Virus record (IMG/VR): IMGVR_UViG_3300024257_000004
DNA length: 21,022 nucleotides
From: a virus
Lineage: Duplodnaviria; Heunggongvirae; Uroviricota; Caudoviricetes; Schitoviridae
Direction: 5' to 3' (one strand)
Below the pieces are notes generated by a model. The model was not told where the DNA came from, ran no database searches, and saw nothing but the letters and a program-made list of their open reading frames with translations. The position numbers and the translations under genes are program-made. This document shows, piece after piece, positions 2,928-21,022 of the stretch. How positions within the stretch are numbered: position 1 is the stretch's first letter; every line of letters starts with the position of its first letter.

Positions 2928-2933
2928 AAATAT

Positions 2934-2949: not shown

Positions 2950-2956
2950 GATATAA

Positions 2957-3136: not shown

Positions 3137-3138
3137 AA

Positions 3139-3176
3139 TTAAGCTAACCTCAAGGATAGTTTAGATAGGATATAAG
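3139..3176 (+). promoter_or_regulatory. Putative promoter (TTAAGC-N21-TAGGAT; TATAAG nearby)
   Basis: TTAAGC 3139-3144, TAGGAT 3166-3171, TATAAG 3171-3176; AAGGA RBS 7 nt before ATG 3202. Confidence 0.35.
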
Positions 3177-3201
3177 AAAATAGGTATATAAGGAAAGTGT
3201 T

Positions 3202-3660: not shown

Positions 3661-3663
3661 ACT

Positions 3664-4867: not shown

Positions 4868-4933
4868 TTAAAGTAAGCTTTAAGACTAAATTAGATAACA
4901 TAAGAGATAATAAGCAAAACTAACAACGTTAGT
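4868..4933 (+). promoter_or_regulatory. Leader of the vRNAP gene: two hairpins and a TAAGC motif before the RBS
   Basis: TTAAAG-TAAG-CTTTAA (4868-4883); ACTAAC-AAC-GTTAGT (4919-4933) directly abutting AAGGAG (4934-4939); GTAAGC 4873-4878 with TAACAT 17 nt downstream. Confidence 0.45.
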
Positions 4934-4949
4934 AAGGAGACTATCTCAT

Positions 4950-7900
4950 ATGACTACAGAAGAATTTTCAAAACTTACAGGGCAATACGTAGCCGGTAAT
5001 GTAAGTAGAATGGATACTAAATCAGCCGAAAAGAAAGCTAGACTACAACAAAAACATGATCAATCGTTATACGGTGTAACAGCTCAAGACGGTCAGTATT
5101 GGGATGATGCAGATTCGTCATCAGACTACAGACTACAAGGTGCTGATGCTCCTGAAATATACCATGAAATGACTCCTACTGGAGATACAAAAAATGTACG
5201 AAGTAAAGTATACCAACAAGTTGCTTACGAAAATCAAATACCGTTAGAAGACGCTGTAAGGATAGTAGACCAACAAGCAGAAGCTAGGGCTATTGACCAA
5301 GAGTACAGACAATCTCCACAATTCCAAATAGATAAACTAAATAATCCCAATGATCCATACTACCAAAGTCAAACACTAGGTGAAGGTATTGGACTTACAG
5401 GTAGAAACACCGGTGGATTAACGTCATTCGACGTATACCATGCTGGTGATGTAGCTACTAAAGCCGGTAGAGAAGATATACAAGCTGCTGACTGGGAAAA
5501 GTATAAAACAGGAGAAAAGGGCTACTTCGGTAGAGAACTACTGAATAATCCAGAGTATGTAAATAAGATGATTAGTGAAGGGTATATGGTACCGGGAGAA
5601 GCTGATGATCCAGTAGAATATGCTAAACAAAAAGAACTATACGATGTAGCAAAAGAGCAAAAGTTAGGTTTACACGGGCATGAGACAGTAGATCCAAGAG
5701 TAGCTCAAGCTATGCAGCAGACTAGTTACGCATACAGTAAAAGCCCTGAAGCAAAAGCCGAAAGAGCTAAACAAGCTGGTATTGAATACCAAAAAGCTAC
5801 ACAAGGTTGGCTTGAAGGTGCGGCTAAAGCTGCAGGTACAGGATTTGTAAAAGAATTAGCTGTAGACTTAGCTGATTGGGTTGGTGATACTACTAATATG
5901 TACGACATAGGTACTGAAGAAGAAAAAACTGAAATGGTTAATAAACTATTCAATTACGTTCCCGCTACTAGCCAAGAGACAGTTCAGCAAGTAGAAGGAC
6001 TGAATAACATCGCATGGGATAGTAACCAAGATATAACTACTAGACTAGCTGCTATAGGTAAATCGATAACACTAGCTGCCCAAGACGGAGAGATGCTAGG
6101 TAGTTCACTAGGTGTGTTAGCTGCATGGTTAATTCCAGGTATGGCACTTACTAAAGGCCACAAAGTCGGTAAAGTTATGACTAAGATAGATAAAGGCGTA
6201 GACGCAGGTAAACTATCACGAACTAAAGCGGCTGGTATGAAAACTAAGAAATTATTAGGTACTAAAGAAGGTGTCGGATATGGACTTAGACAACAATCAG
6301 GTATGATTACTGGTGCACTGGGTAATATAAATGACCAATATGAGACATTCGTAGAAAACAACAATGGAGTTGAACTACAAGGTGCAGACAAAGCTGAATG
6401 GTTTGCTAGATCGTTCGGTGTACAAATGTTCAATCAGAACTTAGATGCAATTACTGCGGTAAGTATTATGAAGTCTCCAGGAATGTTGCAAGCAGCTAAA
6501 CAAAGTATTAAAGACGTAAGTGAAAAAGCATTCGGTAAAGCCATAGTAGGTATGAGTGTTGGAGTCGGTAAAGCAATTGCTCAAATGCCTAAAGAAGCGG
6601 CTCAAGAGTATACTCAGGGTATGATGGAACTATATAATGAAAGATTCGGAGCTGAAGAGTTCAAAGATACGGATACATTTACTAAGTTCATCACTAATCC
6701 TGAATTCGCCAAAGAGAAGACAGTTGATGCACTACTAGGTGCCGGTGGATCACTACAATTCAGCGCTATGGGTGCTATTAGCCAGGCTTCAGGTAAAACT
6801 AAAGATGTTGTAACTGAAACTATGAAGTCTGAAAAAGATAAGTTAGTTGAAGTTGAAAAGGCTGAAGCTAAAGCTCAAGACAAAACTACAACTATGGCTA
6901 ATATTAAACTTCATAATGATACCTACACTAAAGCTATAAGCGATAACGATGTAACTAAAGCTTATAGTACTATACAAGCAATGGAAGCTGAAGTTAACAA
7001 ACTTGCAGTAAACGATGAGAAATCTGCAACAGCCCTGAAAACTATGCTAAACAGTAAGAAGGCTGAGATTAAAACTAAGATCCAAGAGCAGGTTAAGGCT
7101 GAGAAAAGTATGTCAAACAAAGAACTTGTTGCTCTTGGCGCTGGAATAGAAGATAAAAAGGCATTCCTACAAGCAACAGTGGACTCTAGTGATATAGCTA
7201 CGGATGAAGCGTTCATCAAACGAAAAGGTAAAGCATTAGGTGTAGCGCCTCATACTGTAGACAATATGATAGAGCAAGCTAAAGCGTTTAGTCACATGGA
7301 TAAAAGCTCCGATGAAGTTAAAGGATTTAAAGCTAAAATCGATAAAATTAAAAGTTACAAGGCTGCCGGCTATGTTGACCAAGCTCAAGCTGAAACTAGA
7401 GAACTTGAGATGCTATTTGGTAAACACGAAGAAAAAAGCGACGAGTTATCTGCCGGACTTACTGAGTTAGAGCAAAAAATTGATAAAGCTGTAAAACAGG
7501 GTATACCAAACACACTAAAAGGTAAAGAGTGGTCTGCTGAGTACTCTAAGAGGTTAACTGAAAAGTTAGAATTACCTCAGAAGAAAGTAATACATCACAA
7601 AGACGGTACTAATACGGAAGTAACTTATAAAGAAGTAGTTAATAAGTTATTACACAAGTACTCGCAAAGAGATATGAAAGATAAAACTACATTCTCAGAA
7701 GGTGCTTATGGTGATCAACAAAGTTACGAAAACGCTAAAAAAGGTATAAGAAGAGTTGCTGCGATTAATAATATCAAACTAAGTACAATAGCTGGGAAAA
7801 AAGATTCAGCTAAAATCAAAGAACTAAGAACGAAAGCTAAATCTACAGACGCTGAAAAGGAAGAGTTAAAGTCACTACGTAAGCATTCAACATTAGATAC

Positions 7901-10900
7901 TTACAATATCGATCAAGAAGCTATAACGGACTTAAAAAAGAAAATTGCCAGAGAAGAGAAGAAACTTAAAACTATTACTTACGTAAAAGACAATGGTCCT
8001 AAAGCAGAAAAAAGTAAGAGGTACTATATCAAGTGGGAAAAAGGTAAGGGTAGTTACTCTAGTGTAGACAAGAAAGCTGAACATACTAAAAAGATTAAAG
8101 CACTTAAAGATGAAATTGGTAGTTATGGTATTTCTAGTAGAAGCAGAGATAAAGGTGATGTAGAAGCTCTGTTAGGCAAAGTCGATTCAGACATCGCTAA
8201 AAGTACTAATGCGATAGCTAAGCTTGAGATTTCAATCGCCAAAGCTGAAAAAGCTCTGGAGGACGAGGACTACTCCGATATTGAAAAAGACTTGGTTAAC
8301 GATGATATCAAACTAGAACAAGGTGCAATAACTAAACAGAAAGCTCACATTAGTGAAGTTAAAGCCGCTCAAGCTAAAGTACTAGAAGGTAGGCTAGACT
8401 ACAACGAAATGACAGAATTAGATGCCGCTATGGTAGAAGGTATGATGCATTCTCCGAAAGTAGAGGCACAAGAACACTATGCTATATTCAAAGAATACGG
8501 AATTCACATGGGAGAAGACGTAAACGCTAATGAAGCACTAGAATCACTGAATAAAGCTGTAAATGACTCATTGAATGAAAGTAAAGACGCACTTAAAGAC
8601 TTAATTGGCGTAGAGAGTACTGAGAGTAAATTTACTAAATTAGAAGAAGGATTAAAAAAGGTAGACTTAGGTAAGAAACTGCAAAGCATTCACGATTCTA
8701 CTAAAGAGTTAGAGGTACTACGGTATGACTTAAGTACTACTACCGGTGAAAAAGCTAAAGCTGCTCTAGAGGCTAAGATTGACGCTGCTGCTAAGAAGAT
8801 TGAGGATACTAAAGCAGAGATTCAGAACACAGCTAATACTGAATCCATGTTGGATAATAGCTACGGTAAGTCGTTACTATCTGACGAAAAATTCGCTAGA
8901 AGAGTGACACAAACTGTTAAAAACATGAAAAAAGACGATGGTGACTACAGTTTCATGAATGCTGATCCAGACACGTACTTACAGACTGACGCAAAAAATG
9001 TATCTATGTCAATGTCGATTGATTTAGATGCAGAAGAAAACGCAGCGTTAAAAGACTACTCAGTTAAAAAGGCGGATAAGCTATTTAAAGAGATAAAAAC
9101 TAACGATTCTACAAGTACTGCAGCAGCTGTAGTGTCAAATAGTCAAGCATTTATATTCTTAAAAGATCCAGCTACTGACTTAATTATTAGCAAGGATGCA
9201 GATGGTAATCATAGCATAAACCCGAATGTAGCACTAACACTGAGTTTAGTAGGTGATGAGTTTATGAAGACAAGAGCTTCAGAGCTTATATTCAATACTT
9301 GGGAAGATACCAAGAATATTTGGGGTATGCCTGAAGGTACATCGTATAACTCGAAAGCTCATAGGATAACTAAGAGTGCCGGCGCTAACCTATCATTCGT
9401 GGCTAACGAGTTAGGTACTCAAGCTAGAAAGGCTCTAGGTATCAAGTTTAAAGAAGACGCTACTGAAGAAATGGTAGCAATGTTCGATGGATCGTTAGGG
9501 TATAAAGTACTACAAATGCAGATGGCAGAAGGTAGAATTAAACGACACACAGGTAAGGACAAAAATGCTACATCAGTAATTAAAGCTGAAGATGTTGCAA
9601 CCGCTATGAAAACATTTATGCCTGGAACTGCCGTTAAACAAACTCAAAACAGAATGATGGTTCAATTATCAGATAAAATGGTGAAAGATAATGGGTTAAA
9701 AAAACTACAAGGTAACCAAGAAATGGAAGCCCTGTTAGATACATTCGGTGCTAAACACAACGAAAAAGGCCCAAGATTTTCCCCAAGAACTACTAAAGAG
9801 CGTGAAAATAGGACGTTAGAGGCTAGAAGAACTCACGTAGTTAAGGATAACATAGGAGATAAAACAGTTACAGCGGTAGATAAACATGAGAATCTGGAAT
9901 ATAACCTAGATACAGAAGCTATCGACAAACTTATCCAACTAGAAGAAACTAATAAAAAAGCATTCAACGCAAGACTTGGTATTGTTGATTTAACACTACC
10001 GGAGTGGGCTGACGATAAGACATTAGATTCAGTAGATTCTCAAGATGCTGTAAATACAGAGAAACTGCGGGCTTGGGAAGACATAAAAGCATTAAGAGAA
10101 TCAATGAAAGGCAATAATGCTAAACCTAATACGCTGTACTTCAACTGGTTTATGGCTAAATCTGGAAGACTATTTATAGATTCAAATACCATTAACCCTC
10201 AAACTGAAAAACAAATCCAAAGATGGTTAATTACGGCTAAAGAACAAGAAGCAGAAATTGATATCAACAATGATAAGCAAGAAATGGAAGTGTTTAAAGT
10301 AGCTATATCACAAGGGCTAGGTATTGATATTGATAAGCAGGGGTACGAGAATTCTATAAAAGATGGTACAAAAATACTAAGTATGTCAGAAGAAGAACTT
10401 AATATTGCTGAAAAAACTATAATGAACGAAGGTAAGTACACTACTAAAGCGGGGTTAGTTATTAAATCAGAACATTTAGGCCATACAGTTGCTACACTAA
10501 ATAACATTAGAAAGTATAAAAATGCGAAAAATGGTAAATTCACTACTAACCAAGTACTAGAGCTGGATGGTATTACGAATGGGCTTATAGCTAAGTTACT
10601 ACAGATACCGTTAGCTGATATTAATAAAACTATAAAACACCTACGAAGAGGTGGAATTGTTATCGGAGTTACTGAGAAAATTGGATACTTAGACTACGTT
10701 GAGAATAAAGATGAAAAAGATTCATACCAAAATGTATCAGGGCAGTTAAAAGAGCCTAGCTACGAAGACTGGACAAAGCGAATGCCGAAACGGCTATTTA
10801 ATTCTATGACAGCTCTTATGCCTAAAATATTTAGTGAAGAAGACGCTAGTGAGATCACTAAAGAAGGTAGAGATATCGCTAAAGACCCTACTATGCACTT

Positions 10901-12689
10901 CCAGTTCGGAGCTACGCTTAGGTCAATTAAAGCTAATGTTGGTAATAAGATGTCGGATGGTTTTGCGGATAAAATGCTAGAAGCTGCTAACAGAATCGCT
11001 AATGGTAAAGATGTTACAGACTACCCTGCAGCGGACTTAGTTAAAGTATTAGCTTATCACACAGAAAAAAAGGACGCTAAAGTATTTGCCGCAAACTTAG
11101 CTAAACTACTAAAGACTAAAAGTTATGAAGAAATCTCATTTGCTACGCTTGGTATTAAGACATCAGAAGAGAACAAAGCTGGGCATATTACTACGACTAA
11201 GCCGACGTTACAACGTTACTTTAAAGAGTTTACAGAAGCTACGTACGGTGAGCAAGTTGCTGGTGTACTAAAAAATGAATTTGGTGATCTTGTTGAATCG
11301 AATAGAATTATCACTAATAATACAAAAACCCAGTACGCAGGGTTCAAGATAATACTAGAAGATAATATCGCACGAATAGAAGAAAACCAAGGTAAACCTA
11401 TTAGTTTAGCGCAAGAACGAGAACTGCTACAAGAGTTAGCTGATGCATTCCCTACAGTTGAGTCGCCATTTGGTGGGTTAATCGAGTTTATAGATAATAA
11501 ACTACAAAAGTCGGATGAAGCTAGTAAACTATCAATTCAAGCTGCAGTTAACAACAAAAAGTACAAAGGTAAATCTGACAGTAAGTCTAGTGTAACTCTG
11601 CAGATAGTCCTAAGAGATATAGAAGCCGCAGTTAGTTCTGGGGCTGTACTGCCAATTCACTTCACAGATGCTAGTGTTATGGCAGAAGTAATGAATGACT
11701 ACGGATTTACAGAAGTACATGATGCAAAAGTATTAGGAATTACTCAAGCAGTAGGAGCAACTAAAGCTTACAATAAGGGATTCATAGATATTGCAGCAAA
11801 CTACAACTTGTTAGAGAAATACCATGACTCGTTAGTTAAAACAATGAGTATGATGACTCAAGGTCAGATAGATAGAGTTAACGCTATGTTCGCCGCAAGT
11901 CAAACAGCTACGGAAAAAGAAGCTAACCCTAGAAAGAAGTACACGCCAACTAGGTTTAGTACGGATCAAGTACAAGAGTACAACGAAGCACTGGAAGAGG
12001 CAGGAATTAATCCAGAGAGTATACCAGACGTGGCTGAATTTAATAGACTAACAATGGAAGAGATACTAGAGCAAGGGCTGGAATACGCTAACGAAATTAC
12101 AAAAAGAAAACAAGAATTATTTGATAATGTAATACACGCTTCACAGATACCCCTAAATAAAGACTCTATAATGTCGTACAAAAAAGGTGACATAAAGGTT
12201 AACACGTGGGAAAACGGTCCTGCTGTGTTTAGTGTACTAGAAAATCCGGTAGAAATAGAACTACAAACAGAAATTCTAGAGACAAAAGCTGAAGTAACTG
12301 CGGATACGGTAGAAAGATGGACTAAACAAGCTAGAAAACACTTAGTTGATAACTCAGATTTATACCCGGTACTGTATAACTTAAAAACGGATGTAGTTAC
12401 AGGTGGTATCGATACAATATACGATAATATAGCAAGAACAATAGGTAAAGACTTAAGAGAATCGGCTACACAGGATATACTATTTGAAGGGATACTTGAA
12501 CCTAAGTTATCTGAAAAAGAAAGAACAGATGTAGTTAATGAAATAAGAGATCTTAGAAAGGCTATACACGACAGCAGAACTCCTAAAGGCAATACTCAGG
12601 AAGAAAGCGGTACAATCGATGCAGAAATGACAGGTGAGGAATTCACAGATGAAGAGAATGAGGTTTGTAATGATGGGGGAATTTGTTAA
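4950..12689 (+). CDS. N4-like virion-encapsidated RNA polymerase, N-terminal plus polymerase part (2579 aa)
   Basis: Single-subunit RNAP motifs in order: SGRLFIDSNTINPQ (R1740, nt 10167); motif A ELDGITNG (D1873, nt 10566; N4 DGVTNG); motif B RDIAKDPTMHFQFG (R1974/K1978; N4 RGIAKNPLTITIYG); LPIHFTDAS; motif C EVHDA (D2258, nt 11721). Long Cys-free N-terminal region with amphipathic and coiled-coil segments. Confidence 0.93.
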   Translation: MTTEEFSKLTGQYVAGNVSRMDTKSAEKKARLQQKHDQSLYGVTAQDGQYWDDADSSSDYRLQGADAPEIYHEMTPTGDTKNVRSKVYQQVAYENQIPLEDAVRIVDQQAEARAIDQEYRQSPQFQIDKLNNPNDPYYQSQTLGEGIGLTGRNTGGLTSFDVYHAGDVATKAGREDIQAADWEKYKTGEKGYFGRELLNNPEYVNKMISEGYMVPGEADDPVEYAKQKELYDVAKEQKLGLHGHETVDPRVAQAMQQTSYAYSKSPEAKAERAKQAGIEYQKATQGWLEGAAKAAGTGFVKELAVDLADWVGDTTNMYDIGTEEEKTEMVNKLFNYVPATSQETVQQVEGLNNIAWDSNQDITTRLAAIGKSITLAAQDGEMLGSSLGVLAAWLIPGMALTKGHKVGKVMTKIDKGVDAGKLSRTKAAGMKTKKLLGTKEGVGYGLRQQSGMITGALGNINDQYETFVENNNGVELQGADKAEWFARSFGVQMFNQNLDAITAVSIMKSPGMLQAAKQSIKDVSEKAFGKAIVGMSVGVGKAIAQMPKEAAQEYTQGMMELYNERFGAEEFKDTDTFTKFITNPEFAKEKTVDALLGAGGSLQFSAMGAISQASGKTKDVVTETMKSEKDKLVEVEKAEAKAQDKTTTMANIKLHNDTYTKAISDNDVTKAYSTIQAMEAEVNKLAVNDEKSATALKTMLNSKKAEIKTKIQEQVKAEKSMSNKELVALGAGIEDKKAFLQATVDSSDIATDEAFIKRKGKALGVAPHTVDNMIEQAKAFSHMDKSSDEVKGFKAKIDKIKSYKAAGYVDQAQAETRELEMLFGKHEEKSDELSAGLTELEQKIDKAVKQGIPNTLKGKEWSAEYSKRLTEKLELPQKKVIHHKDGTNTEVTYKEVVNKLLHKYSQRDMKDKTTFSEGAYGDQQSYENAKKGIRRVAAINNIKLSTIAGKKDSAKIKELRTKAKSTDAEKEELKSLRKHSTLDTYNIDQEAITDLKKKIAREEKKLKTITYVKDNGPKAEKSKRYYIKWEKGKGSYSSVDKKAEHTKKIKALKDEIGSYGISSRSRDKGDVEALLGKVDSDIAKSTNAIAKLEISIAKAEKALEDEDYSDIEKDLVNDDIKLEQGAITKQKAHISEVKAAQAKVLEGRLDYNEMTELDAAMVEGMMHSPKVEAQEHYAIFKEYGIHMGEDVNANEALESLNKAVNDSLNESKDALKDLIGVESTESKFTKLEEGLKKVDLGKKLQSIHDSTKELEVLRYDLSTTTGEKAKAALEAKIDAAAKKIEDTKAEIQNTANTESMLDNSYGKSLLSDEKFARRVTQTVKNMKKDDGDYSFMNADPDTYLQTDAKNVSMSMSIDLDAEENAALKDYSVKKADKLFKEIKTNDSTSTAAAVVSNSQAFIFLKDPATDLIISKDADGNHSINPNVALTLSLVGDEFMKTRASELIFNTWEDTKNIWGMPEGTSYNSKAHRITKSAGANLSFVANELGTQARKALGIKFKEDATEEMVAMFDGSLGYKVLQMQMAEGRIKRHTGKDKNATSVIKAEDVATAMKTFMPGTAVKQTQNRMMVQLSDKMVKDNGLKKLQGNQEMEALLDTFGAKHNEKGPRFSPRTTKERENRTLEARRTHVVKDNIGDKTVTAVDKHENLEYNLDTEAIDKLIQLEETNKKAFNARLGIVDLTLPEWADDKTLDSVDSQDAVNTEKLRAWEDIKALRESMKGNNAKPNTLYFNWFMAKSGRLFIDSNTINPQTEKQIQRWLITAKEQEAEIDINNDKQEMEVFKVAISQGLGIDIDKQGYENSIKDGTKILSMSEEELNIAEKTIMNEGKYTTKAGLVIKSEHLGHTVATLNNIRKYKNAKNGKFTTNQVLELDGITNGLIAKLLQIPLADINKTIKHLRRGGIVIGVTEKIGYLDYVENKDEKDSYQNVSGQLKEPSYEDWTKRMPKRLFNSMTALMPKIFSEEDASEITKEGRDIAKDPTMHFQFGATLRSIKANVGNKMSDGFADKMLEAANRIANGKDVTDYPAADLVKVLAYHTEKKDAKVFAANLAKLLKTKSYEEISFATLGIKTSEENKAGHITTTKPTLQRYFKEFTEATYGEQVAGVLKNEFGDLVESNRIITNNTKTQYAGFKIILEDNIARIEENQGKPISLAQERELLQELADAFPTVESPFGGLIEFIDNKLQKSDEASKLSIQAAVNNKKYKGKSDSKSSVTLQIVLRDIEAAVSSGAVLPIHFTDASVMAEVMNDYGFTEVHDAKVLGITQAVGATKAYNKGFIDIAANYNLLEKYHDSLVKTMSMMTQGQIDRVNAMFAASQTATEKEANPRKKYTPTRFSTDQVQEYNEALEEAGINPESIPDVAEFNRLTMEEILEQGLEYANEITKRKQELFDNVIHASQIPLNKDSIMSYKKGDIKVNTWENGPAVFSVLENPVEIELQTEILETKAEVTADTVERWTKQARKHLVDNSDLYPVLYNLKTDVVTGGIDTIYDNIARTIGKDLRESATQDILFEGILEPKLSEKERTDVVNEIRDLRKAIHDSRTPKGNTQEESGTIDAEMTGEEFTDEENEVCNDGGIC

Positions 12690-15600
12690 ATGATATGTCC
12701 AGTTAAAGGTATAAAGTTATCAATCAGAGACGTGATTGATAACGAAAAGAGCGTACAGAAAGCTAGAAATGTCATAACTAAACGAATTGACTTATTCTGG
12801 AGTGATTATGAAAAAACATCAGATAAGACTTACACCGCGGAAGCTGTAAGCACGTGGAAAAAAGAACAGTTCGACCTACTAATAAAAAAGAAGGGTATAG
12901 CCCCTCTTCCTAGTGAAAATTTGACTAAATACTCTATTGGGGATAGAAGAGTCAGAGCCAGTAAAACAGGTAAAACTGATAACACAGCTAGTATACTAAT
13001 GGTAGATAAGAATACTGACGGTACTATGAGCTTACTGACAATGACACACAAAACGGGAAAACTGACTAAAGTAGACTTAGATAGTAACTACAATAGCCCT
13101 AAAATGGATTATGATAAACAAGTAATTGACGGTATATACCAAACGGTCAGCAGCAAAGTTAAAGGAATCAGAAACCAACCTAATAAACAATTAGGTTCAG
13201 ATATTAGGGGTAAAGCCGCAGAACTAGAAGGCTATGCTCAAGAGTATGGTAATTTAACCAATGATCCAGAACAAGTTAAAGCCCTGGCAAAAGAACTAAA
13301 TAGAAAATCAGATGTGCAGGTTAGTGTGGAACATGAAGGTTGGTTAGTAGACGTAGTAGATATGTTTATTGGTAAAGACAAAAAGTTCTTACCGCAAAAT
13401 CTGCAAGTGTACCTTAATAAAAAAGGACCAAAGTCACTAGGTACGTTTGTCCCATACGCTGAAGAAAAAATCGGAGCAGGTATTTACATAACTGAAGGTA
13501 ACGAAGCTAGAGTTGCTGGTAACCAAATGGGGCCTATGGAGAAATACGTACATGAATTAATACATGGGGCTATGTACTATGGGCTAGAAAGTGGAGATCC
13601 TGAAGTTGCAGGGGCTAGAGAAAGGTTAGAAAAGCTATATCACAAAGTGGTTGATAAACTTGTATGGCAAGACTTGATGCCGAGCGGATCAGACTATGAC
13701 TATAAGGAAGAAAAGAAAATAGCAGTAGCTATGTTAAAACACATGAGGGAAACTGATGGTTTGCATGAGTTTATCACATACGGTCTGACAAATGAAAATA
13801 TGATTAAGAAGTTACAAACAGTAACTATGTATATAGATAAGTCCGTAAAAGCTAAGAATGTCTGGGAGGCACTTAGGTTTATGGCACAAGACTTAATTGA
13901 TATGATTATGAGTACTGTGCGAAAAGAAACAGTTAATACCACAGGGCATAAACTACTGATAAAATTAAGTATGGACATAGCTAAAGCTAATAATACGGCT
14001 GCTAAAACATATGCTACATTCACGATGGGGGAAAAAGCTGGGGAGTTTATTGATAAGCTGAATGGCGCAATTAATAACGTAACTGACAAGTTGAAAGAGA
14101 ACCAGTTAGACAAAGACTTGCCGAAGTTACCAGCAAACGCTACTAAGCTTGAAACAGCTAAGTGGTTAGCAGGCAACTTAAGTAAAATGGTAATGGATGA
14201 TAGAATGAGACCGCATTATGAAGCAGCACTTACAGCAGCTGGGCTAAAACCGGAAGGAATTACCCAACAGTTAATAAGAGCATTCAGTCAAGATGATAAC
14301 TTACAAAGAACTGTTGAGAGGCTTGGGTTACTGTCGATGGACATTGACGATAAACGATTCGCTATGGGGCAAGCTATAAGTTCAACAATTAGAAGTGCTT
14401 GGAAAGGCAAGCTAAGTAAGGCTGACAATGAATTAGTTACAGAAGTTTTACTGGATAATGATATTCAAGTTTTAGGTAATACAGGAAAAGGTATTAGTAA
14501 ATTATTCAGCAGTGATACTGAAGTAACTAAACAGATAGATAAGTACCGTAAAGTAATTATAGATAAAGCTGCCACTAAAGCAGACGCTAACTACTATTTA
14601 AATGAAGCAAAAGGACTGGCGAGATACTTATTAACACATAAAGCTAGTGAAATACAGCTACTGAATGCTAATAACATAGCACGGCAACTAGGTACAGCTA
14701 ATCAGGTAGATAAAGCTGATCCCGCTCTGGTAGAAGCTATTGACAAGTTAAGTTCATTAACGGCATTGAAGGATACAGATGCAGCTAAAAAAGATAGGAT
14801 TAAAGAACTGTTTGAGTCAGAGCCTGACGGTATACACACAGTACTGAACCTACATAAAGGGTTTGTAGCTGACACAAGAGAGAAGCTATTCTCTGATAAT
14901 GATATAAATTACATTAAAGGGTATACGAAAGAGATATTTGATGCTGATATAGATATTAAAGTAGCGAAAATTAGCGATAAGAAGGACATGATTGCGCAAG
15001 GGTACCAGTTTATAGCGCCACTAGTTAAATCAGAGTTGGATAATACTAGAGGGGAATTTGCTTTATATAGAAGTAACTTACACGCACTTCAAGGGTATAA
15101 TAAACAAGCGTTTAGAACTACCGATACTGCCGGAAAAGGTACTACTATTGCCGATATTCTGTATAAAACGAATTTAGATCCTAAGTTTGTTAAGATTAGA
15201 GAAAAAGCTATGATAGCTGAAATTAGCGGTAATGTGGAGACTGCTAGAAGTAAATGGTATGAAAGTGAATTTGACGAATTGCCGATAAGTAATATGGTAC
15301 CTGTGTATAACAAAGATGGTAAAGTTATCACATATAGGTACATGATGTCTAAAGCTGAGAAAAAGAATTTACTAGCTCAAGATACTAGGGCGAATTTGGT
15401 ATTAGGGCAGATGTACGCTAACAATATGGATAAGGTTTCTTCTGGGGAGATGAATAAAAAAGTAATTAATACAGTTCTTGAAGACATGGAAGATAACTAT
15501 ATTCCAGGTAAAACTTATGGTAAAAATGGTAAAGAGTACATCATGGTGGGTCCGGACGGCGTAGTTGATGACAAGTATAAAGAGATGTGGAGATTATTGC

Positions 15601-16757
15601 CTAGTGCAGCTAAACATAACTTAGAGCAGAAAGCTAAAGAACTATTAGAAGAAGATGAAACGTTTAAAGGTATTGCTGTACGGCGTGATTTAGTTAGGCA
15701 ATACTTCGGGGAAAGGGATTTTTCTATTGGAGATACTAGGCTTATGGGATTAAGCCCTAAAGTGATAAGACAAGCCGTAGTGTTAGCCGAACGAATATGG
15801 AAGAGTATAGTAGGTATAGCTAAAGCTAATATCGTAATTAAAACTCCGGCTGTACTGTTTGGTAATATTATAAGTAACTTGGTACTTAGTGTACAATTAG
15901 GTATGGATCCGTTGAGTGTACTAAAATTACAGTGGAGTGGGCTAAAAGACTTACAAGCCTACAAGAAAACTGAGGGTAAGTTAAATGAACTGGCTATTAA
16001 GATTAGTAGTAATAAGGCTCAAGGTAAGCCGTATAAAGCACTCGAAGCACAAGTTAAAGTGTATAAGAAAGAGTTAAATAGGAATCCTGCTCACGTATTA
16101 ATCAAAGAAGGGTTATTTAGTTCAATAGTAGAAGATGTTAACCCTGAAGATAGACGATCAAATGACCCTGTTGGTAGATGGATAGATAAGAAAACTGAAA
16201 ATTGGCCTGAAGTGGTTAAGCAGGGTACGAATTATCTGTATCTTACTGAAAGAACTGCTCCGTACCAAATGATGCTTACGGCTACGCAATATAGTGATTT
16301 TATTGCTAGATATGGGTTATACCACGGTACAAAAAAGAAACAAGAGCGTGCGATTGAAAGCAAGCATGGTAGAAAAACTACTCCTGCTGAAAGAAAAAAG
16401 CTTGAAGATAGTACATTAGAGTTAGTAACGAATGCGTTTATTAACTATAATACACTAGATAACAAGTATGTTAAATACGCGAATGACATGGGGTTAGTAA
16501 TGTTTACTAAATTCTTTGTCGGTATTCAGCAAGTACTTAAAAAAGGTTTAGCTGATAAGCCTGTTAATTTCATACTCGCGATGTTAGGACAAGTATTGTT
16601 ATTTGACGTTGAAGATATTACTGAACATTCAGTAATAACTAAAAACTATGAGGCAATACTTCATAACCCGTTAGAAATTATGCGAGAAGTGTATACTCCT
16701 TCGTCTATCGAGTTACTAAGCGTGCCTCATGATGTTATACAGAAACTAGCTGCATAA
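12690..16757 (+). CDS. Separately encoded C-terminal part of the N4-like vRNAP, with zincin-like HExxH motif (1355 aa)
   Basis: Starts at the base after the upstream TAA, same frame, with GGGGGA 9 nt upstream. YVHELIH (H288/E289/H292, nt 13551-13565) and HEFITYGLTN (E360) resemble the HELIH...EFMAWALTN segment I recall from the N4-type vRNAP C-terminal domain. Combined length 3934 aa versus about 3500 for N4 vRNAP. Confidence 0.8.
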   Translation: MICPVKGIKLSIRDVIDNEKSVQKARNVITKRIDLFWSDYEKTSDKTYTAEAVSTWKKEQFDLLIKKKGIAPLPSENLTKYSIGDRRVRASKTGKTDNTASILMVDKNTDGTMSLLTMTHKTGKLTKVDLDSNYNSPKMDYDKQVIDGIYQTVSSKVKGIRNQPNKQLGSDIRGKAAELEGYAQEYGNLTNDPEQVKALAKELNRKSDVQVSVEHEGWLVDVVDMFIGKDKKFLPQNLQVYLNKKGPKSLGTFVPYAEEKIGAGIYITEGNEARVAGNQMGPMEKYVHELIHGAMYYGLESGDPEVAGARERLEKLYHKVVDKLVWQDLMPSGSDYDYKEEKKIAVAMLKHMRETDGLHEFITYGLTNENMIKKLQTVTMYIDKSVKAKNVWEALRFMAQDLIDMIMSTVRKETVNTTGHKLLIKLSMDIAKANNTAAKTYATFTMGEKAGEFIDKLNGAINNVTDKLKENQLDKDLPKLPANATKLETAKWLAGNLSKMVMDDRMRPHYEAALTAAGLKPEGITQQLIRAFSQDDNLQRTVERLGLLSMDIDDKRFAMGQAISSTIRSAWKGKLSKADNELVTEVLLDNDIQVLGNTGKGISKLFSSDTEVTKQIDKYRKVIIDKAATKADANYYLNEAKGLARYLLTHKASEIQLLNANNIARQLGTANQVDKADPALVEAIDKLSSLTALKDTDAAKKDRIKELFESEPDGIHTVLNLHKGFVADTREKLFSDNDINYIKGYTKEIFDADIDIKVAKISDKKDMIAQGYQFIAPLVKSELDNTRGEFALYRSNLHALQGYNKQAFRTTDTAGKGTTIADILYKTNLDPKFVKIREKAMIAEISGNVETARSKWYESEFDELPISNMVPVYNKDGKVITYRYMMSKAEKKNLLAQDTRANLVLGQMYANNMDKVSSGEMNKKVINTVLEDMEDNYIPGKTYGKNGKEYIMVGPDGVVDDKYKEMWRLLPSAAKHNLEQKAKELLEEDETFKGIAVRRDLVRQYFGERDFSIGDTRLMGLSPKVIRQAVVLAERIWKSIVGIAKANIVIKTPAVLFGNIISNLVLSVQLGMDPLSVLKLQWSGLKDLQAYKKTEGKLNELAIKISSNKAQGKPYKALEAQVKVYKKELNRNPAHVLIKEGLFSSIVEDVNPEDRRSNDPVGRWIDKKTENWPEVVKQGTNYLYLTERTAPYQMMLTATQYSDFIARYGLYHGTKKKQERAIESKHGRKTTPAERKKLEDSTLELVTNAFINYNTLDNKYVKYANDMGLVMFTKFFVGIQQVLKKGLADKPVNFILAMLGQVLLFDVEDITEHSVITKNYEAILHNPLEIMREVYTPSSIELLSVPHDVIQKLAA

Positions 16758-16900: not shown

Positions 16901-17128
16901 TTACCACCAGCCAAAAAATTGACCTAAACCGTGGAACCAGCCTACAGGTGGTACAAGAGCTCCAGCTATAAGAAGTAAATACTTCTCAGTTTGAAAACAG
17001 TACACTAGGTGGTTAATAAATGGTGCTACTAGCAGTATAATACCCGCTATAACGCTTAGTATACCAACCACACCCTTATACGTGTACTTAAAATCAGACC
17101 ATTTACGTTTAATAGTTTCTCTAGTCAT
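16901..17128 (-). CDS. Small two-helix membrane protein (75 aa), function unknown
   Basis: Hydrophobic GVVGILSVIAGIILLVAPFI and YLLLIAGALVPPVGWFHG; start overlaps the upstream stop (TAATG at 17126-17130). Confidence 0.7.
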   Translation of the reverse strand: MTRETIKRKWSDFKYTYKGVVGILSVIAGIILLVAPFINHLVYCFQTEKYLLLIAGALVPPVGWFHGLGQFFGWW

Positions 17129-17454
17129 TATTTGCTACTAGTCTGTTCTTTTTCGAATAATTTCTGTCTAAGAAGATAACCTTCTAGCATCCATATCTTG
17201 TCTTTAGCATTAGTAAAAGCAATACCTTCACCAATTTCTTGGTCAAAGTTAGCTGGACTAGCGCATGCAGATTCACCTGTTACAGTGAAACCATTTACAA
17301 GGGTAACGCAACAAACAGTTAATATCCCATTAAATACGTGGTATTCAATTGATTTGATAGCGTTATCAATGTCGGCTGGAGACAGTCTAGGGGCATTAAG
17401 TCCCTTCCGTTGGATTAGACATTCAACTTCTTGGTCGTTTAGTGATTTAGCCAT
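17128..17454 (-). CDS. N4 gp49/Sf6 gp66-family protein (PF13876), candidate Acb4-type cyclic-nucleotide sponge (108 aa)
   Basis: LTVCCVTLVNGFTVTGESACASPANFDQEIGEGIAFTNAKDKIWMLEGYLLRQKL fits the family pattern NGFtVtGeSaC.spenFd.eiG..iA..nA..kiW.lEGYlL. Lies near the vRNAP on the opposite strand, as N4 gp49 does. Confidence 0.8.
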   Translation of the reverse strand: MAKSLNDQEVECLIQRKGLNAPRLSPADIDNAIKSIEYHVFNGILTVCCVTLVNGFTVTGESACASPANFDQEIGEGIAFTNAKDKIWMLEGYLLRQKLFEKEQTSSK

Positions 17455-17960
17455 TATGACCTCCTGTCTAGTATTGCTTGTAATTTAGGTTCAGGTGCAT
17501 ATAGAGACTCCCAATCTGCAGGTTTAGTAATCTTACCTTGCGAGTCTTTATTATTTCCCTTCATTTCATTAGCTGTATGAACTACTTGTAGTCCCTCAAC
17601 AATGTGCTCAGGAGTTAGTCCAAGCTTGTGTAGAGAACCAATGGCGAAGTAAAGCTGATCAAGATGTTTGTCAAATCTATCTACATCAGGGATATTTATA
17701 GGTACCTGCAATGCTCCTGACTCTGGCAATGAACATGAATTGATAATCAATCTAGACCATTCCTTTGCTGAAGTTTCTCCATTGAAGTCTGACCTAATTG
17801 AATTCTGTAAATCATATAGGTCGAACCCCTCGAGTGCTTCCTCAATAGGATATGCTGATTCGGTTGCATCATCATACGATCCGCGTGGGTATCCCCATAC
17901 AACTTCATTTAGCTTACAAATACCTTCGATTAATTCGAAGGCTTGCTTTTTATGCGTCAT
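17454..17960 (-). CDS. MazG-like / PRA-PH-like all-alpha nucleoside triphosphate pyrophosphohydrolase (168 aa)
   Basis: IEEALE, DKHLDQLYFAIGSLHKLG, VVHTANEMK and GKITKP match the EE..E / D..D..Y..G / V..sN.sK / GK..KP layout of DR2231-type MazG-like proteins. Confidence 0.7.
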   Translation of the reverse strand: MTHKKQAFELIEGICKLNEVVWGYPRGSYDDATESAYPIEEALEGFDLYDLQNSIRSDFNGETSAKEWSRLIINSCSLPESGALQVPINIPDVDRFDKHLDQLYFAIGSLHKLGLTPEHIVEGLQVVHTANEMKGNNKDSQGKITKPADWESLYAPEPKLQAILDRRS

Positions 17961-17962
17961 AA

Positions 17963-18454
17963 CTAGTCCCTATGCGCCATAGCAGCTAATTGCTGCAGTA
18001 AGGCAGGAGATACTGCGTAGTTACCCTCGATGATATCTTCCAGTGATGACCTAAGTGCTTCCTCTGCTAACTCATCGATAGTTAATCGGTCTAAGTCTAG
18101 ATTATCAGGCTCAGCATCGTCTAACTGCTCTATGTGGTCTATAAGGGATTGCAGGTTAAAGCTGGCTTCTTGTTCCTCATAGTCGTCCTCATCAGAACCG
18201 ACTGCAGCGTCAACTAAGTCCTCAACAGCTTCATCCACTAGTTGCTTACAGCAGTTGAATAGGTTATCACCTTCTTCTGGTACACCTTCAGTTATTACGT
18301 CACCATTGTAGTAGACTGTAATACAAGGTTCAGTACCTTCTTGGTCTAAGTCAATAGCTAATTCTCCACCGTCTAACACTGCATTGTCGCATACTAAATC
18401 AACGTATGCTCTAATCGCTGGGAAGTTAGTATCAATTTGTGCTTGCGTAAACAT
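17963..18454 (-). CDS. Highly acidic hypothetical protein (163 aa), candidate DNA mimic
   Basis: By hand count 42 Asp/Glu versus 5 Lys/Arg. Start overlaps the HU stop (TAATG at 18452-18456). Confidence 0.7.
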   Translation of the reverse strand: MFTQAQIDTNFPAIRAYVDLVCDNAVLDGGELAIDLDQEGTEPCITVYYNGDVITEGVPEEGDNLFNCCKQLVDEAVEDLVDAAVGSDEDDYEEQEASFNLQSLIDHIEQLDDAEPDNLDLDRLTIDELAEEALRSSLEDIIEGNYAVSPALLQQLAAMAHRD

Positions 18455-18726
18455 TACGCTGTTACCGCTTGCTTAAATGCTGATGCTGCTTTGAATTTAG
18501 GTACTCGTTTCTCTTGAGATTCCCAAGCCTTACCGTTCATAGTTCCTGATTTAGCTGCTTGCACATGTGGGTAAAATTTACCTAATCCGCTGATAACTAC
18601 TTCGTTACCTTCTGCAACTTCACCTGTTACCGTTCCAATTAAACACTCAACTACTCTCGTAGCTGCTGCTTTTGATTCGATATCATCTAATTCCGCGATT
18701 CTGTTAATTAATTCTGCTTTATTCAT
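18454..18726 (-). CDS. hup: HU-family DNA-binding protein (90 aa)
   Basis: MNKAELI N-terminus, GNEVVISGLGKF, KRVPKFKAASAFKQAV; AAGGAG RBS at 18736-18741. The usual R-G-R-N-P arm reads KSGTMNGK here. Confidence 0.92.
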   Translation of the reverse strand: MNKAELINRIAELDDIESKAAATRVVECLIGTVTGEVAEGNEVVISGLGKFYPHVQAAKSGTMNGKAWESQEKRVPKFKAASAFKQAVTA

Positions 18727-18756
18727 ATTTATATTCTCCTTTGGGTTAATGATCCC

Positions 18757-18762
18757 ATTATA
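18757..18762 (-). promoter_or_regulatory. Consensus -10 box TATAAT upstream of HU
   Basis: The + strand ATTATA at 18757-18762 reads TATAAT on the - strand, 30 nt upstream of the HU ATG. No TTGACA -35, as is common in Campylobacterota. Confidence 0.5.
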
Positions 18763-18774
18763 TGACGACTTATT

Positions 18775-18843
18775 GCTCTTGCTCTCCTAGGGGCGTTACT
18801 ACTAGTGTCCACGGCGAAAAAGTGTGGAATATCGCACAAGAGC
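18775..18843 (-). other. Non-coding element foldable as a three-stem RNA structure
   Basis: GCTCTTG (18775-81) pairs with CAAGAGC (18837-43), enclosing CTAG/CTAG (18787-90, 18802-05) and TCCAC/GTGGA (18808-12, 18824-28). GC-richer than its flanks, no ORF. Confidence 0.35.
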
Positions 18844-18852
18844 GGTGTGTGA

Positions 18853-19053
18853 TTAAGCTCCAGCCATTAGTTGACCGTAAATCAACTTCTGGTTACAAGC
18901 TATATTTGTATATGCTATACCGGCAGCTGACGTATTAGTTACTTTAGTGTAGTAATTACCAACTCGTTGCGCTTTAGGTGTTTTATCGTTTGCGGCGATT
19001 ACGCCGTTTTCACTCCAAGCTCTTCTATTCATATATTCTGGTAGTGATCCCAT
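18853..19053 (-). CDS. Hypothetical protein (66 aa)
   Basis: AAAGGAG RBS before the ATG; fills the gap after thyX; no family recognised. Confidence 0.6.
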   Translation of the reverse strand: MGSLPEYMNRRAWSENGVIAANDKTPKAQRVGNYYTKVTNTSAAGIAYTNIACNQKLIYGQLMAGA

Positions 19054-19074
19054 ATTGTCTCCTTTATTTAGTTA

Positions 19075-19785
19075 TTATTCTGACTCTGCGGCCATACATC
19101 CTTCGAAAAGGTACTTGTGATCCTCAGGTAAGGCATCGAATATAGCATTAGCTAAGTCTCTGATTTCCCATAATGCTGCTTTAGCTGAACGTAGTGCTAA
19201 GAAATTCTGTAAAGATCTAGCATTGATAGTCCAAGCTAACTCAGTCTTGTAGGACTCAGGTAAACAGTACTTAGCTTTGTCATTAGATACACCTATTGCT
19301 AATACAGTACGTAGTCCTTCTAGTGCTAAGCAGGATTGCTGATCTACTACCGAATCTCCAGTATAAACTAAATACTTACTAGCTCGTTCCATATCATATG
19401 ACGCAGTAAATCTATCATCAGAATACATTACAAAAGCATCCTCTTCTTTCAGTTCTTTGAGTGTGTAGCGAGTTGACTTCACACTAGGACTAGCTATTCT
19501 ATGTCTGGCTAGTTCTTGTAGTAATGCCCTAGACACCTCTGATATATCAAATGAGTATGAAATGTGCTCCAGTGTAGAGGCGTGCTTGAATTTGTTACCC
19601 ACACGTTCTATAAGTTCTCTGTCTTTAGGACCGCATACAACAACGCCATCTCTGTTTATGCTAGCAGGCCTATCGTCTATAAACGTATCCGATTTGTCTC
19701 CGCTAGCCCAACATTTACGAATAGCGTGTGAGGCTATATGTAATGGTGTGTGGTGTAATAATTGTACTGTTGGTTTATTACTCAT
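19075..19785 (-). CDS. thyX: FAD-dependent thymidylate synthase ThyX (236 aa)
   Basis: KHASTLEH, SRALLQELARHRIASPSVKSTRY (RHR-x7-S-x-R ThyX motif), WTINARSLQNFLALRS, WEIRDLA. Confidence 0.97.
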   Translation of the reverse strand: MSNKPTVQLLHHTPLHIASHAIRKCWASGDKSDTFIDDRPASINRDGVVVCGPKDRELIERVGNKFKHASTLEHISYSFDISEVSRALLQELARHRIASPSVKSTRYTLKELKEEDAFVMYSDDRFTASYDMERASKYLVYTGDSVVDQQSCLALEGLRTVLAIGVSNDKAKYCLPESYKTELAWTINARSLQNFLALRSAKAALWEIRDLANAIFDALPEDHKYLFEGCMAAESE

Positions 19786-19991
19786 GTAATTTCTCCTATT
19801 ATGTTTTGTTTAGTTTTAAGTGCCTCGATCTCAGCTCGAACAGTTATTATTTCTTGCCTAAATTCCATTCTAAGTTCATTGATAGCACTGCTAATTTTGG
19901 CATCAGTTGCTAGTCTCTGAGCTCTAAATTCTTTGCCAACCTTTTCTCCCATTTCTTTATAGTTTGGTAGTTGCTGGTTACCCAGTACCAT
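19782..19991 (-). CDS. Hypothetical coiled-coil protein (69 aa)
   Basis: Heptad-like ISSAINELRMEFRQEIITVRAEIEALK; ATGA overlap with the thyX start; 5' end overlaps the upstream gene by 14 nt. Confidence 0.6.
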   Translation of the reverse strand: MVLGNQQLPNYKEMGEKVGKEFRAQRLATDAKISSAINELRMEFRQEIITVRAEIEALKTKQNIIGEIT

Positions 19992-20325
19992 TTTGCTGTT
20001 CCATTTCTGCTATAAGAAACTCCACGTAGTGCTTGGCTTTACGGAGGTCTTCAAGTCCATTCTTATCTTTATACCTAGTTACATACTTTACTACGTTACC
20101 TTGGCAAAAACTAAGGTCATTAGCCATTATGTATTCCAACGGCTGTATACCTTTATTCTTGTAATGGTCACCTCCATGTTGAATGTCAAATGGGCTAGGT
20201 TTAGTAGGTTCCGGTTCATCTTTACATACATGAAGTAATCCGTCATAATGTGTTACACCGCACAGCGGGCATGTGTCCGATACTGGTGTGTACTCTGTTG
20301 TTATGTAATCGTATGGGCTTCCCAT
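19978..20325 (-). CDS. DUF3310 / T7 gp1.7-like nucleotide kinase with an N-terminal Cys/His motif (115 aa)
   Basis: GGDHYKNKGIQPLEYIMANDLSFCQGNVVKYVTRYKDKNGLEDLRKAKHYVEFLI is a typical DUF3310 core; N-terminal CPLC-x3-H-x5-H-x-C; TGATG overlap with the RNR gene. Confidence 0.8.
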   Translation of the reverse strand: MGSPYDYITTEYTPVSDTCPLCGVTHYDGLLHVCKDEPEPTKPSPFDIQHGGDHYKNKGIQPLEYIMANDLSFCQGNVVKYVTRYKDKNGLEDLRKAKHYVEFLIAEMEQQNGTG

Positions 20326-21022
20326 CAGTTATCCTTCTTATCAAATTTACTTAGGTCGTTTCTAACTTGACCAACTTGGTACGATACATTATCAATTTCT
20401 TGCAGTGCTGATGCTTTACCGTTAATGTTTCTGTATTCATCGAACCATTGTTCGATATCATTCTTCTGTACATTATAGATAGGTTCAAGTTTAAGTTCCT
20501 TAAGCCGTCTATCTGTCCAGTACTGAATGAAGTGATTACAGATTTCCTGGTTAAATCCAGGCACCGCACCATCTTCAAGTAGGTACTTAGCCCACTCCAT
20601 TTCACGTTCTGCTGTCTCCTTAGCCATGTTAGTAGCTAATTCCTTGAACCATCCTGAGTTAAACAGGTGTGCTGTAGTAGTTGACTTGCTTAGTCTACGC
20701 AGTGCTGTTGATCCAGTTGCTGTGTGTACAGACATCTCATCAGTAGCAATTTTAATCAGCAGTTGGCTAAAACCTTGTGCACAGTTATCGTACGCTTTAT
20801 TCAATGTCCATGAAGTAAAGAACGAGAACGGGAATTTGATACCTTCTAAGAAGAATACACCTAGTAGTAACTCAATTAGTAACTTTTGGTGTTCTTCTGA
20901 GTCCGTCCACCCCGATTTAACTGCTGATATAAATCTTTCAGCTAGATCAAGTTCAAGCTCGATACGTCCCATGATGTGAGGATCAGTGTAGATGATGTCC
21001 AGGAATTCTTGCGCTTTAGCAC
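20325..21022 (-). CDS. nrdB: Class I ribonucleotide reductase beta (R2) subunit, 5'-truncated by the window edge
   Basis: LEGIKFPFSF (EGIxF), IATDEMSVH, YWTDRRLKEL...PIY, C-terminal LQEIDNVSY. The frame stays open from the ORF-track ATG (20972) to the window end (AKAQEFLDIIYTDPHI-M), so the true start lies outside. Confidence 0.88.
   Translation of the reverse strand, partial: AKAQEFLDIIYTDPHIMGRIELELDLAERFISAVKSGWTDSEEHQKLLIELLLGVFFLEGIKFPFSFFTSWTLNKAYDNCAQGFSQLLIKIATDEMSVHTATGSTALRRLSKSTTTAHLFNSGWFKELATNMAKETAEREMEWAKYLLEDGAVPGFNQEICNHFIQYWTDRRLKELKLEPIYNVQKNDIEQWFDEYRNINGKASALQEIDNVSYQVGQVRNDLSKFDKKDN

Follow-up and report, generated by a model that had tools for sequence, protein, structure and literature searches.

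Why should a phage encode its virion RNA polymerase (vRNAP) in two abutting genes, and why should the only cysteines of both products lie where the chain is cut? Both questions are raised by an uncultured N4-like phage from the sea, IMG/VR virus record IMGVR_UViG_3300024257_000004 (Caudoviricetes, Schitoviridae), of which a stretch of 21,022 nucleotides, hereafter the window, was analysed. A first-pass annotation had proposed an evolved two-chain polymerase rejoined through terminal cysteines. Comparison with related phages lends support to that proposal: terminal cysteines recur at chain breaks in relatives that share 25-45% identity, are missing from most of the unsplit ones, and appear to track the breaks through at least seven transitions between the split and unsplit states. 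We argue that a head-to-tail interchain disulfide in the released virion probably holds the unfolded pieces on one thread while they are ejected, and that the host cytoplasm then reduces it.

The two pieces and their junction

The features at issue are given below in window coordinates.

4950-12689, plus strand: piece A (P0001) of the vRNAP, 2579 residues; N-terminal domain and T7-like RNA polymerase domain, then a variable acidic tail of about 290 residues
12666-12668, plus strand: TGT codon of Cys2573, the second tail cysteine of piece A, found only in some relatives (e.g. P0164, ...CVGENC)
12675-12680, plus strand: GGGGGA, Shine-Dalgarno-like, 9 nucleotides 5' of the piece B ATG
12684-12686, plus strand: TGT codon of Cys2579, final residue of piece A and proposed tail coupler
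12687-12689, plus strand: TAA stop closing piece A
12690-16757, plus strand: piece B (P0002) of the vRNAP, 1355 residues; C-terminal domain, its head flexible, including a zincin-like domain with HExxH
12696-12698, plus strand: TGT codon of Cys3 of piece B, proposed head coupler
13551-13565, plus strand: HELIH (H288-H292) of piece B, zincin-like; context, outside the coupler

Both genes match PHROG family phrog_2206, 'virion RNA polymerase', piece A with E = 4.6e-67 over profile positions 111-1977 of 3406 and piece B with E = 4.6e-167 over positions 2333-3383. Piece B also matches residues 2620-3449 of coliphage N4 gp50 (sequences of PDB entries 9pnq and 11gp), and 473 phage records annotated as vRNAP were matched by tblastn. 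Judged by these homologies, the two genes are parts of one N4-type vRNAP. In BLAST comparisons with full-length relatives, piece A is conserved to about residue 2290 and piece B from about residue 168, and the cut therefore falls between the polymerase and C-terminal domains, in some 450 residues of variable sequence, a placement that rests on the PHROG profile and these BLAST comparisons. The tail alignment contains an invariant D2240 in 'VHDA' and a conserved 'PIHxxD' block. We take these to resemble motif C of T7-like single-subunit polymerases.

Searches for further domains were negative. Pfam returned no family in either piece: vRNAP_dom_2 did not match piece A, and the first 260 residues of piece A had no Pfam match even at E = 10. 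Residues 1300-2579 of piece A matched nothing among PDB sequences, a profile of piece B heads gave only noise against PDB sequences, and a Foldseek search of the PDB with the piece B head model yielded nothing significant. That AlphaFold2 model, which covers residues 1-420 and was built with 77 homologues, has a mean predicted local distance difference test (pLDDT) score of 78. Residues 1-19 (pLDDT <50) and 65-87 are predicted to be disordered, and Cys3 is accordingly predicted to sit on a flexible leash, residues 1-19 being disordered in the model. The well-folded domain containing the HExxH motif (pLDDT >85) starts near residue 180; its H288, E289 and H292 are nearly invariant in the 77 homologous C-terminal pieces.

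At the junction, the translation of piece A ends ...EEFTDEENEVCNDGGIC, followed by TAA, its last residues reading ...CNDGGIC. The very next base opens the ATG of piece B, in the same frame, and the product begins MICPVKGIK.... Coordinates and translation thus agree with the abutting in-frame arrangement first described, and the GGGGGA motif, then called ribosome-binding-site-like, lies where it had been placed. A residue count likewise confirms that A2573, A2579 and B3 are the only cysteines among the 3934 residues of the two pieces; about 34 would be expected at the 0.865% cysteine frequency of Schitoviridae proteomes (PMC11445570). Were three cysteines placed at random over 3934 positions, the probability of all falling within the 10 junction residues would be 1.6e-8. 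The acidic tail and basic head to which the first-pass annotation drew attention are both present in the window, where the last 25 residues of piece A have a net charge of -9 and the head of piece B is weakly basic (+1 to +3 over 12-40 residues), but the pairing is not conserved, mean head charge being about 0 in 123 relatives.

The stop codon of piece A is genuine and not an error of a single assembly, since contigs from other seawater runs match across it. Contigs X9 (12452-12819) and X14 (12637-12964) match the window exactly, including the stop at 12687-12689 on which doubt might have fallen, and an identical protein of 1355 residues is recorded from a JGI contig; the seawater runs may share one sampling campaign. 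DNA of the window is present in seawater metagenomes. Sampled words of its sequence also occur in an RNA-library run (X4), of which no contig aligned to the stretch. Among GenBank phages, megablast gave no hit to the junction region, and a scan of IMG/VR with the piece B head found no relative.

Cysteines at the chain ends of related polymerases

Searched exhaustively with HMMER, the representative library yielded 1852 piece B homologues. The best 156 representatives of 50%-identity clusters were analysed, and the 141 shorter than 1900 residues are separate C-terminal-domain pieces (C-pieces). A cysteine lies within residues 1-6 in 124 of these 141, at position 3 in 91, position 4 in 24 and position 5 in 8, and 122 contain exactly one cysteine; after the likely removal of methionine, the mature position varies from 2 to 5. 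None of the full-length representatives (n = 10) has an N-terminal cysteine, and seven of them have no cysteine whatever. When 77 heads are aligned, no column but M1 and C3 is invariant, and conservation is otherwise lacking over roughly the first 90 residues. Every metagenomic homologue of piece B at 25-44% identity starts M-x-C.

Upstream pieces show the mirror image. All eight that were found by homology search (P0161-P0167 and P0174) have cysteine only in their last six residues, where it forms an invariant column of the tail alignment, while the full-length proteins from the same search carry none at their ends. The split and the terminal cysteines, which the first-pass annotation described in the window alone, are found in its relatives as well, among them the Alteromonas phage AD45. 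Elsewhere the avoidance of cysteine is nearly complete: the vRNAP of PT15-A5 (3495 residues) and N4 gp50, gp51 and gp52 contain none, and across 191 Schitoviridae cysteine makes up 0.00075% of vRNAP as against 0.865% of the proteome (PMC11445570). As side observations, the unsplit vRNAPs P0114, P0141 and P0158 each have a CxxxxC pair near residue 3250-3475 and no other cysteine, and the full-length relatives P0169-P0173 have 4-9 scattered internal cysteines.

Cysteines were found on both sides of 15 junctions, namely those of the window, AD45-P1, L002, L003 (two), L005 (two), L008, L016, L018-L021 and Cellulophaga phage phi14:2 (two), the L numbers denoting loci of related phages. Examples are as follows.

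L002: tail ...GCKK, head MNC
L008: tail ...ICKTK, head MAC
L019: tail ...NQCS, head MAIC
L018: tail ...WTCK, head MSSKC
L016: tail ...EGCV, head MAGC
L003, first junction: tail ...GCKQ, head MKC of an 897-residue Dda/PIF1-like helicase
L003, second junction: tail ...KKECE (helicase end), head MAC
L005, first junction: tail ...NGEC, head MAC of a 1125-residue DprA-like protein
L005, second junction: tail ...QREC (end of the DprA-like protein), head MAC

The cysteines at these junctions are encoded by TGT and by TGC, the intergenic distance ranges from -4 to +28 nucleotides, the frames of the two genes differ, and in Bacteroides phage crAss001 the gene for gp47 and that for its presumed partner are on different strands. 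As the flanking DNA is so variable, the sequence comparison indicates that it is at the protein level that the cysteines are conserved. Lysine is common beside them (...CKK, ...CKQ, MACK...). The same figures bear on the suggestion that the two chains are made in equal amounts by translational coupling: with TAA directly followed by ATG and a Shine-Dalgarno-like motif upstream, coupling is plausible in the window, and AGGA or GGAG motifs likewise precede the downstream start at relatives' junctions, but given the range of gaps and frames, and the opposite strand of crAss001 gp47, it is not a general explanation.

Two alternatives can be weighed at this point. One is that the stop arose by sequencing error or recent nonsense mutation, or is read through, and that the clustering of cysteines is coincidental. 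The two ORFs (open reading frames) of the window do share one frame, and one study, which regards split vRNAPs as rare, proposes read-through and treats the ORFs as one (PMC10654107). The stop is present in other runs too, however, and the chance probability given above is minute; in relatives, the pieces lie in different frames, separated by anything from a 4-nucleotide overlap to a 28-nucleotide gap, which rules out read-through as a general mechanism. Moreover, of the 152 nearest cluster representatives placed on a tree, only 10 are full-length; the other 142 have a gene separate from that of the N-terminal domain, and 136 of these are free C-terminal pieces, so that the split form is the majority and the published view of it as rare and perhaps read through stands in need of correction. 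The first-pass annotation had held that a random nonsense change or error would not account for cysteines on both sides, and with the same pattern in relatives we regard the probability of such an artefact as negligible.

The other alternative is a metal clasp, in which the terminal thiolates of both chains would jointly bind Zn, Cu or Fe. The window offers three cysteines for such a site, His or Glu stands beside some tail cysteines (...KHCKQ, ...TKHC, ...KKECE, ...NGEC), and the problem of assembly timing would disappear, since a reducing cytoplasm is no obstacle to a clasp. Yet with mostly one cysteine per terminus (122 of 141 C-pieces), a junction would supply only two thiolates, which is not enough to hold Zn stably; C3, the position of which itself varies from 2 to 5 in the mature chain, has no second conserved ligand beside it; and a two-thiolate site would be expected to oxidise to a disulfide in oxygenated seawater. 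Zinc clasps and zinc hooks have four conserved ligands, typically two cysteines from each partner, whereas most relatives of the window have one cysteine per terminus and no other conserved ligand. A metal clasp, the zinc form of which had been offered by the first-pass annotation beside a disulfide, is unlikely, most lineages having one cysteine per side.

Exceptions, inserted genes and polarity

A rule of this kind is best judged by its exceptions. Seventeen short representatives lack an N-terminal cysteine, and most of these are truncated ORFs or have starts that look miscalled. Two apparent exceptions that were full-length, P0022 and P0084, were checked: their real starts lie a few codons upstream and read MSTC and MGC, while the genes preceding them end ...NKNCRG and ...KTPCKD. 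Both counter-examples are thus miscalled start codons, and a prediction of the rule was passed. L011, considered as a cysteine-free split, proved an artefact, its 'pieces' ending at scaffold gaps (runs of N). In L010, which encodes P0012 (2181 residues, no cysteine), no polymerase piece was called upstream in the available stretch. L018 contains at 4486-4497 a chain break with no cysteine on either side, the downstream ORF having a GTG start (VLTEEQ...); by its sequence, this break is more suggestive of a frameshift or an error of assembly than of a real boundary between genes.

Genes inserted between the pieces are more telling. The Dda/PIF1-like helicase occurs in three arrangements. Free-standing (L003 7279-9972), it has cysteines at both ends; fused to the C-terminal domain (P0039, L016 8270-14821), the product has C4 as its sole cysteine; fused to the polymerase in piece A (P0161), the sole cysteine is C2867. 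Since the boundary of a fused helicase carries no cysteine and the free helicase carries one at each end, the cysteines appear from these comparisons to mark chain ends and not domain boundaries. The presence of this superfamily 1 (SF1) helicase in the string of vRNAP genes of some relatives implies, on the same kind of evidence, that it would be packaged in the virion and injected. In L005, a 1125-residue insert (4890-8267) with DprA-like (phrog_768) and phrog_2072 regions separates the polymerase and C-terminal pieces, and its only cysteines lie in its MAC start and ...REC end. L016 additionally has, at 8047-8268, a cysteine-free ORF of 73 residues between its polymerase piece (...EGCV) and the piece joining helicase and C-terminal domain (MAGC...).

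These inserts bear on a further possibility, namely that the cysteines never link the chains and have a role only once inside the host, whether in redox sensing, in regulation or as an aid to non-covalent docking. Contact between the pieces may well matter at that stage, as the N4 C-terminal domain allosterically regulates the polymerase domain (PMC13434306). But such a role would not need cysteines to stand in a disordered segment at most six residues from a chain end, nor to be restricted to chain breaks, including those around unrelated helicase and DprA-like inserts, and we hold it to be highly improbable.

The cysteines also have a polarity. First pieces have them only at the tail, middle pieces at both ends, and last pieces only at the head. 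This is the polarity that a linear head-to-tail chain predicts, and it favours such a chain, since it would not be expected of homodimers or of pieces anchored to a third partner. A FastTree phylogeny of 152 C-terminal-domain cores, which is quick and unrooted and in which gain and loss are indistinguishable, has the state changing between split and unsplit at least seven times. Across seven independent pairs, the N-terminal cysteine followed the split state in five to seven, and in no pair was the trend reversed (sign test, median p 0.03).

A proposed disulfide coupler

We consider it likely, though well short of assured, that the terminal cysteines form a head-to-tail interchain disulfide in the released virion, which would keep the unfolded pieces on one thread during ejection and be reduced in the cytoplasm. 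The following sequence of events can be envisaged. Pieces A and B would be made in similar amounts, in the window probably by coupled translation, and would be co-packaged while still in the cytoplasm, which is reducing. Once lysis had released the virion into oxygenated water, the terminal thiols would form the interchain disulfide. Because the cysteines lie 0-6 residues from the ends, the linked product would be a thin thread with almost no side stub. Unfolding for passage through a tail channel of about 35 Å would break non-covalent contacts between domains, and the second piece would nevertheless be pulled in, in the right order. In the host cytoplasm the bond would be reduced, leaving the pieces free to refold and act separately. 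Extra cargo, such as the Dda/PIF1-like helicase or the DprA-like protein, could be inserted as separate 'carriages' with a cysteine at both ends. Flanking lysines would be expected to lower the thiol pKa and speed both oxidation and reduction, and in the window C2573 might, speculatively, act as a resolving thiol.

Several findings suit this proposal. Each chain has a conserved cysteine, with one or more per side, and the head segment is predicted to be disordered, i.e. accessible. The exclusion of cysteine from ejected proteins has been attributed to their passage through the tail and periplasm (PMC3821669; PMC11445570).

What the sequence comparisons establish is the split and where it lies, together with the position of the cysteines, their conservation and how strictly they go with chain breaks; everything beyond that is inferred. 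Several points weigh against the disulfide. As the cytoplasm in which assembly takes place is reducing, the pieces must be co-packaged non-covalently beforehand. Phages of the crAss-like group in the anoxic gut carry the same cysteines, and oxidation there is less obvious. The tail in the window has two cysteines, and the one besides C2579, namely C2573, has no assigned role. The authors of the AD45 study counted cysteines and, without remarking that these are terminal and paired, concluded from them that the protein is not injected (PMC3821669). A search for an Erv1/ALR sulfhydryl oxidase (PF04777) in AD45-P1, phi14:2 and PT15-A5 found no match, but control genomes were equally silent. Lastly, P0155 (L017 9741-17311; 2436 residues, polymerase and C-terminal domains) starts MAC and has no recognisable upstream partner with a terminal cysteine. 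The genes before it in L017 resemble tail or fibre genes with internal cysteines, and a partner may be encoded elsewhere.

A head cysteine without an upstream partner gene, as in P0155, would be less surprising if the terminal cysteines tethered the pieces to some other virion component, or formed A-A or B-B homodimers. Like-with-like pairing is sterically possible, as an N4 virion holds about four vRNAP copies (PMC13434306). The polarity described above is hard to explain in either way, as is the lack of cysteine where two modules are fused, and gp51 and gp52, the neighbours in the ejection operon of N4 that might serve as partners, contain no cysteine. Such pairings are, in our estimation, decidedly unlikely.

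It could also be supposed that the cysteines are handles for ligation to a true peptide bond, in a manner resembling trans-splicing, or for another covalent bridge. Cysteine is the nucleophile in inteins and in reactions of the native-chemical-ligation type, for which a near-terminal placement would be suitable. A split intein consists of N- and C-fragments of about 100 and 35 residues, with a terminal HN before the +1 cysteine. At the junctions considered here, only 0-6 residues follow the tail cysteine and 2-4 precede the head cysteine, which stands at position 3-5 and not at 1, and Pfam detected no intein or other domain in either piece. AD45 shows polypeptides of 270 and 175 kDa in place of a single one of about 445 kDa, the gel conditions being unstated (PMC3821669). 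We give ligation very little credence indeed, and return to the disulfide as the preferred reading.

Relation to published work

Parts of this picture are already published: the split in AD45 (2013), and the avoidance of cysteine in Schitoviridae ejection proteins (2002, 2024). A literature search found no paper that notes the terminal, paired placement of cysteines or proposes a link between the chains, and the cysteine rule appears to be unreported. In the DEV paper, six cysteines in homologues of gp72 (N4 gp51-type), some of them near the ends of truncated predictions, were ascribed to annotation or sequence errors.

The open question to which our proposal speaks is how protein totalling 300-600 kDa leaves the phage head through a channel of about 35 Å in the right order, in N4-like and crAss-like phages alike. 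A terminal disulfide coupler, if it exists, would be a simple physical answer, for a chain that is covalently continuous stays so when it unfolds. Such cysteines, currently read as a sign of non-injection or an annotation error, would then mean the opposite, and the coupler would explain how new cargo enzymes are added as separate genes. The window is but one member of a very large group, and the crAss-like phages include the most abundant human gut viruses.

Gene neighbourhood

Directly upstream of the vRNAP stand two further genes.

3202-4860, plus strand: two ORFs of 152 and 398 residues, both cysteine-free

By position and size these are candidate counterparts of N4 gp52 (151 residues) and gp51, which are likewise free of cysteine and stand in the same order; neither ORF matched a family in PHROG or Pfam. 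On the minus strand, facing the vRNAP, positions 17128-20972 hold a replication and nucleotide-metabolism module comprising an N4 gp49-family gene (PF13876), an HU-like DNA-binding protein, ThyX, DUF3310 and the small subunit of ribonucleotide reductase. Its proteins contain 1-4% cysteine, unlike the ejection genes. In L019, a relative of 100 kb, the gene for the large subunit of ribonucleotide reductase (17733-24074) is in at least four pieces, split by HNH and GIY-YIG homing-endonuclease genes.

Comparison with known systems

N4 gp50 is homologous to both pieces of the window at only about 23% identity and has the same order of N-terminal, polymerase and C-terminal domains. The neighbourhoods are also alike, with small cysteine-free genes upstream and a gp49-family gene adjoining, and a general avoidance of cysteine is common to both polymerases. 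They differ in that gp50, as the first-pass annotation had stated for N4, is one chain of 3500 residues with no cysteine, whereas in the window the chain is cut into two ORFs and has three cysteines, all at the junction. The N4 linker between polymerase and C-terminal domains is flexible and invisible in the structure (residues 2102-2123), and in the accepted model of ejection the vRNAP is thought to unfold subdomain by subdomain through the tail channel (PMC13434306).

The closest cultured relatives of the window, at 26% identity, are Alteromonas phages vB_AmaP_AD45-P1 to -P4. Their vRNAP (ORF127 and ORF126) is split at the equivalent place, between polymerase and C-terminal domain, and in both systems cysteines are confined to the termini at the junction. 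AD45 has only C2493 (...SKHCKQ-stop) and C4 (MTIC...), i.e. one on each side, in comparison with two and one in the window, and its ORFs lie in different frames 7 nucleotides apart, while those of the window share a frame with no gap. The stop was verified by polymerase chain reaction (PCR) and re-sequencing, and two polypeptides were seen on gels (Garcia-Heredia et al. 2013, PMC3821669). The gel conditions being unstated, these two bands neither support nor contradict a reducible link. The AD45 vRNAP is annotated as a 'potential frameshift', though it is in fact two ORFs.

We know of no covalent head-to-tail linkage among the T7-type ejection proteins gp14, gp15 and gp16. These are separately encoded and leave the capsid through the tail ahead of the DNA (PMC13434306).

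Two-chain toxins offer a functional analogy without homology. In diphtheria toxin and the clostridial neurotoxins, a catalytic chain held to its partner by one interchain disulfide passes through a narrow channel in the unfolded state, and reduction in the cytosol then sets it free. There, a single chain is nicked by a protease and the disulfide is not at the termini, whereas the pieces of the window are separate genes with terminal cysteines.

A parallel in cysteine placement comes from crAss-like phages, a different phage order. In phi14:2, whose GenBank record lists gp65-67 as detected by tandem mass spectrometry (MS/MS), the only cysteine of gp67 is its last residue (...NTIC), those of the polymerase gp66 are C3 (MAC...) and C2179 (...QECK), and that of gp65 is C3 (MSC...). 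These cargo proteins belong to the virion and enter the host; some crAss-like phages have them as a single fused protein. In crAss001, gp47 ends ...LRCNS, gp50 starts MSKRC and gp49 starts MAKKC; gp50 also has one internal cysteine, and its tail cysteine stands nine residues from the end. Interchain disulfides have been seen in the tail and portal vertex of crAss001 (PMC10172136), and disulfide chemistry is therefore available inside phage particles. The polymerases themselves are of different kinds, two-barrel with DFDxD in crAss-like phages and T7-like in the window. BLASTP of piece B against phi14:2 gp65 found no significant similarity, and homology of the N4-type C-terminal domain to gp65 is not supported. 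A zincin-like domain has been reported in gp65, the last crAss-like piece, at a similar distance from its MxC start.

What the crAss-like cargo and the window have in common is the same cysteine rule in giant proteins that are packaged in the virion and translocated, together with a last piece that is zincin-like in both. On the strength of these sequence comparisons, we lean slightly towards the view that the terminal cysteines are a general, modular coupling device of tailed phages that inject giant proteins, by which polymerase pieces, helicases, DprA-like proteins and zincin-domain proteins would be oxidised into a single covalent thread in the released virion, ejected in order and uncoupled by reduction in the cytoplasm. 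As part of this view, it seems somewhat favoured that the device arose, or was kept, in both N4-like and crAss-like phages. Such a coupler, if real, would explain why proteins otherwise devoid of cysteine carry it only at the ends of their chains.

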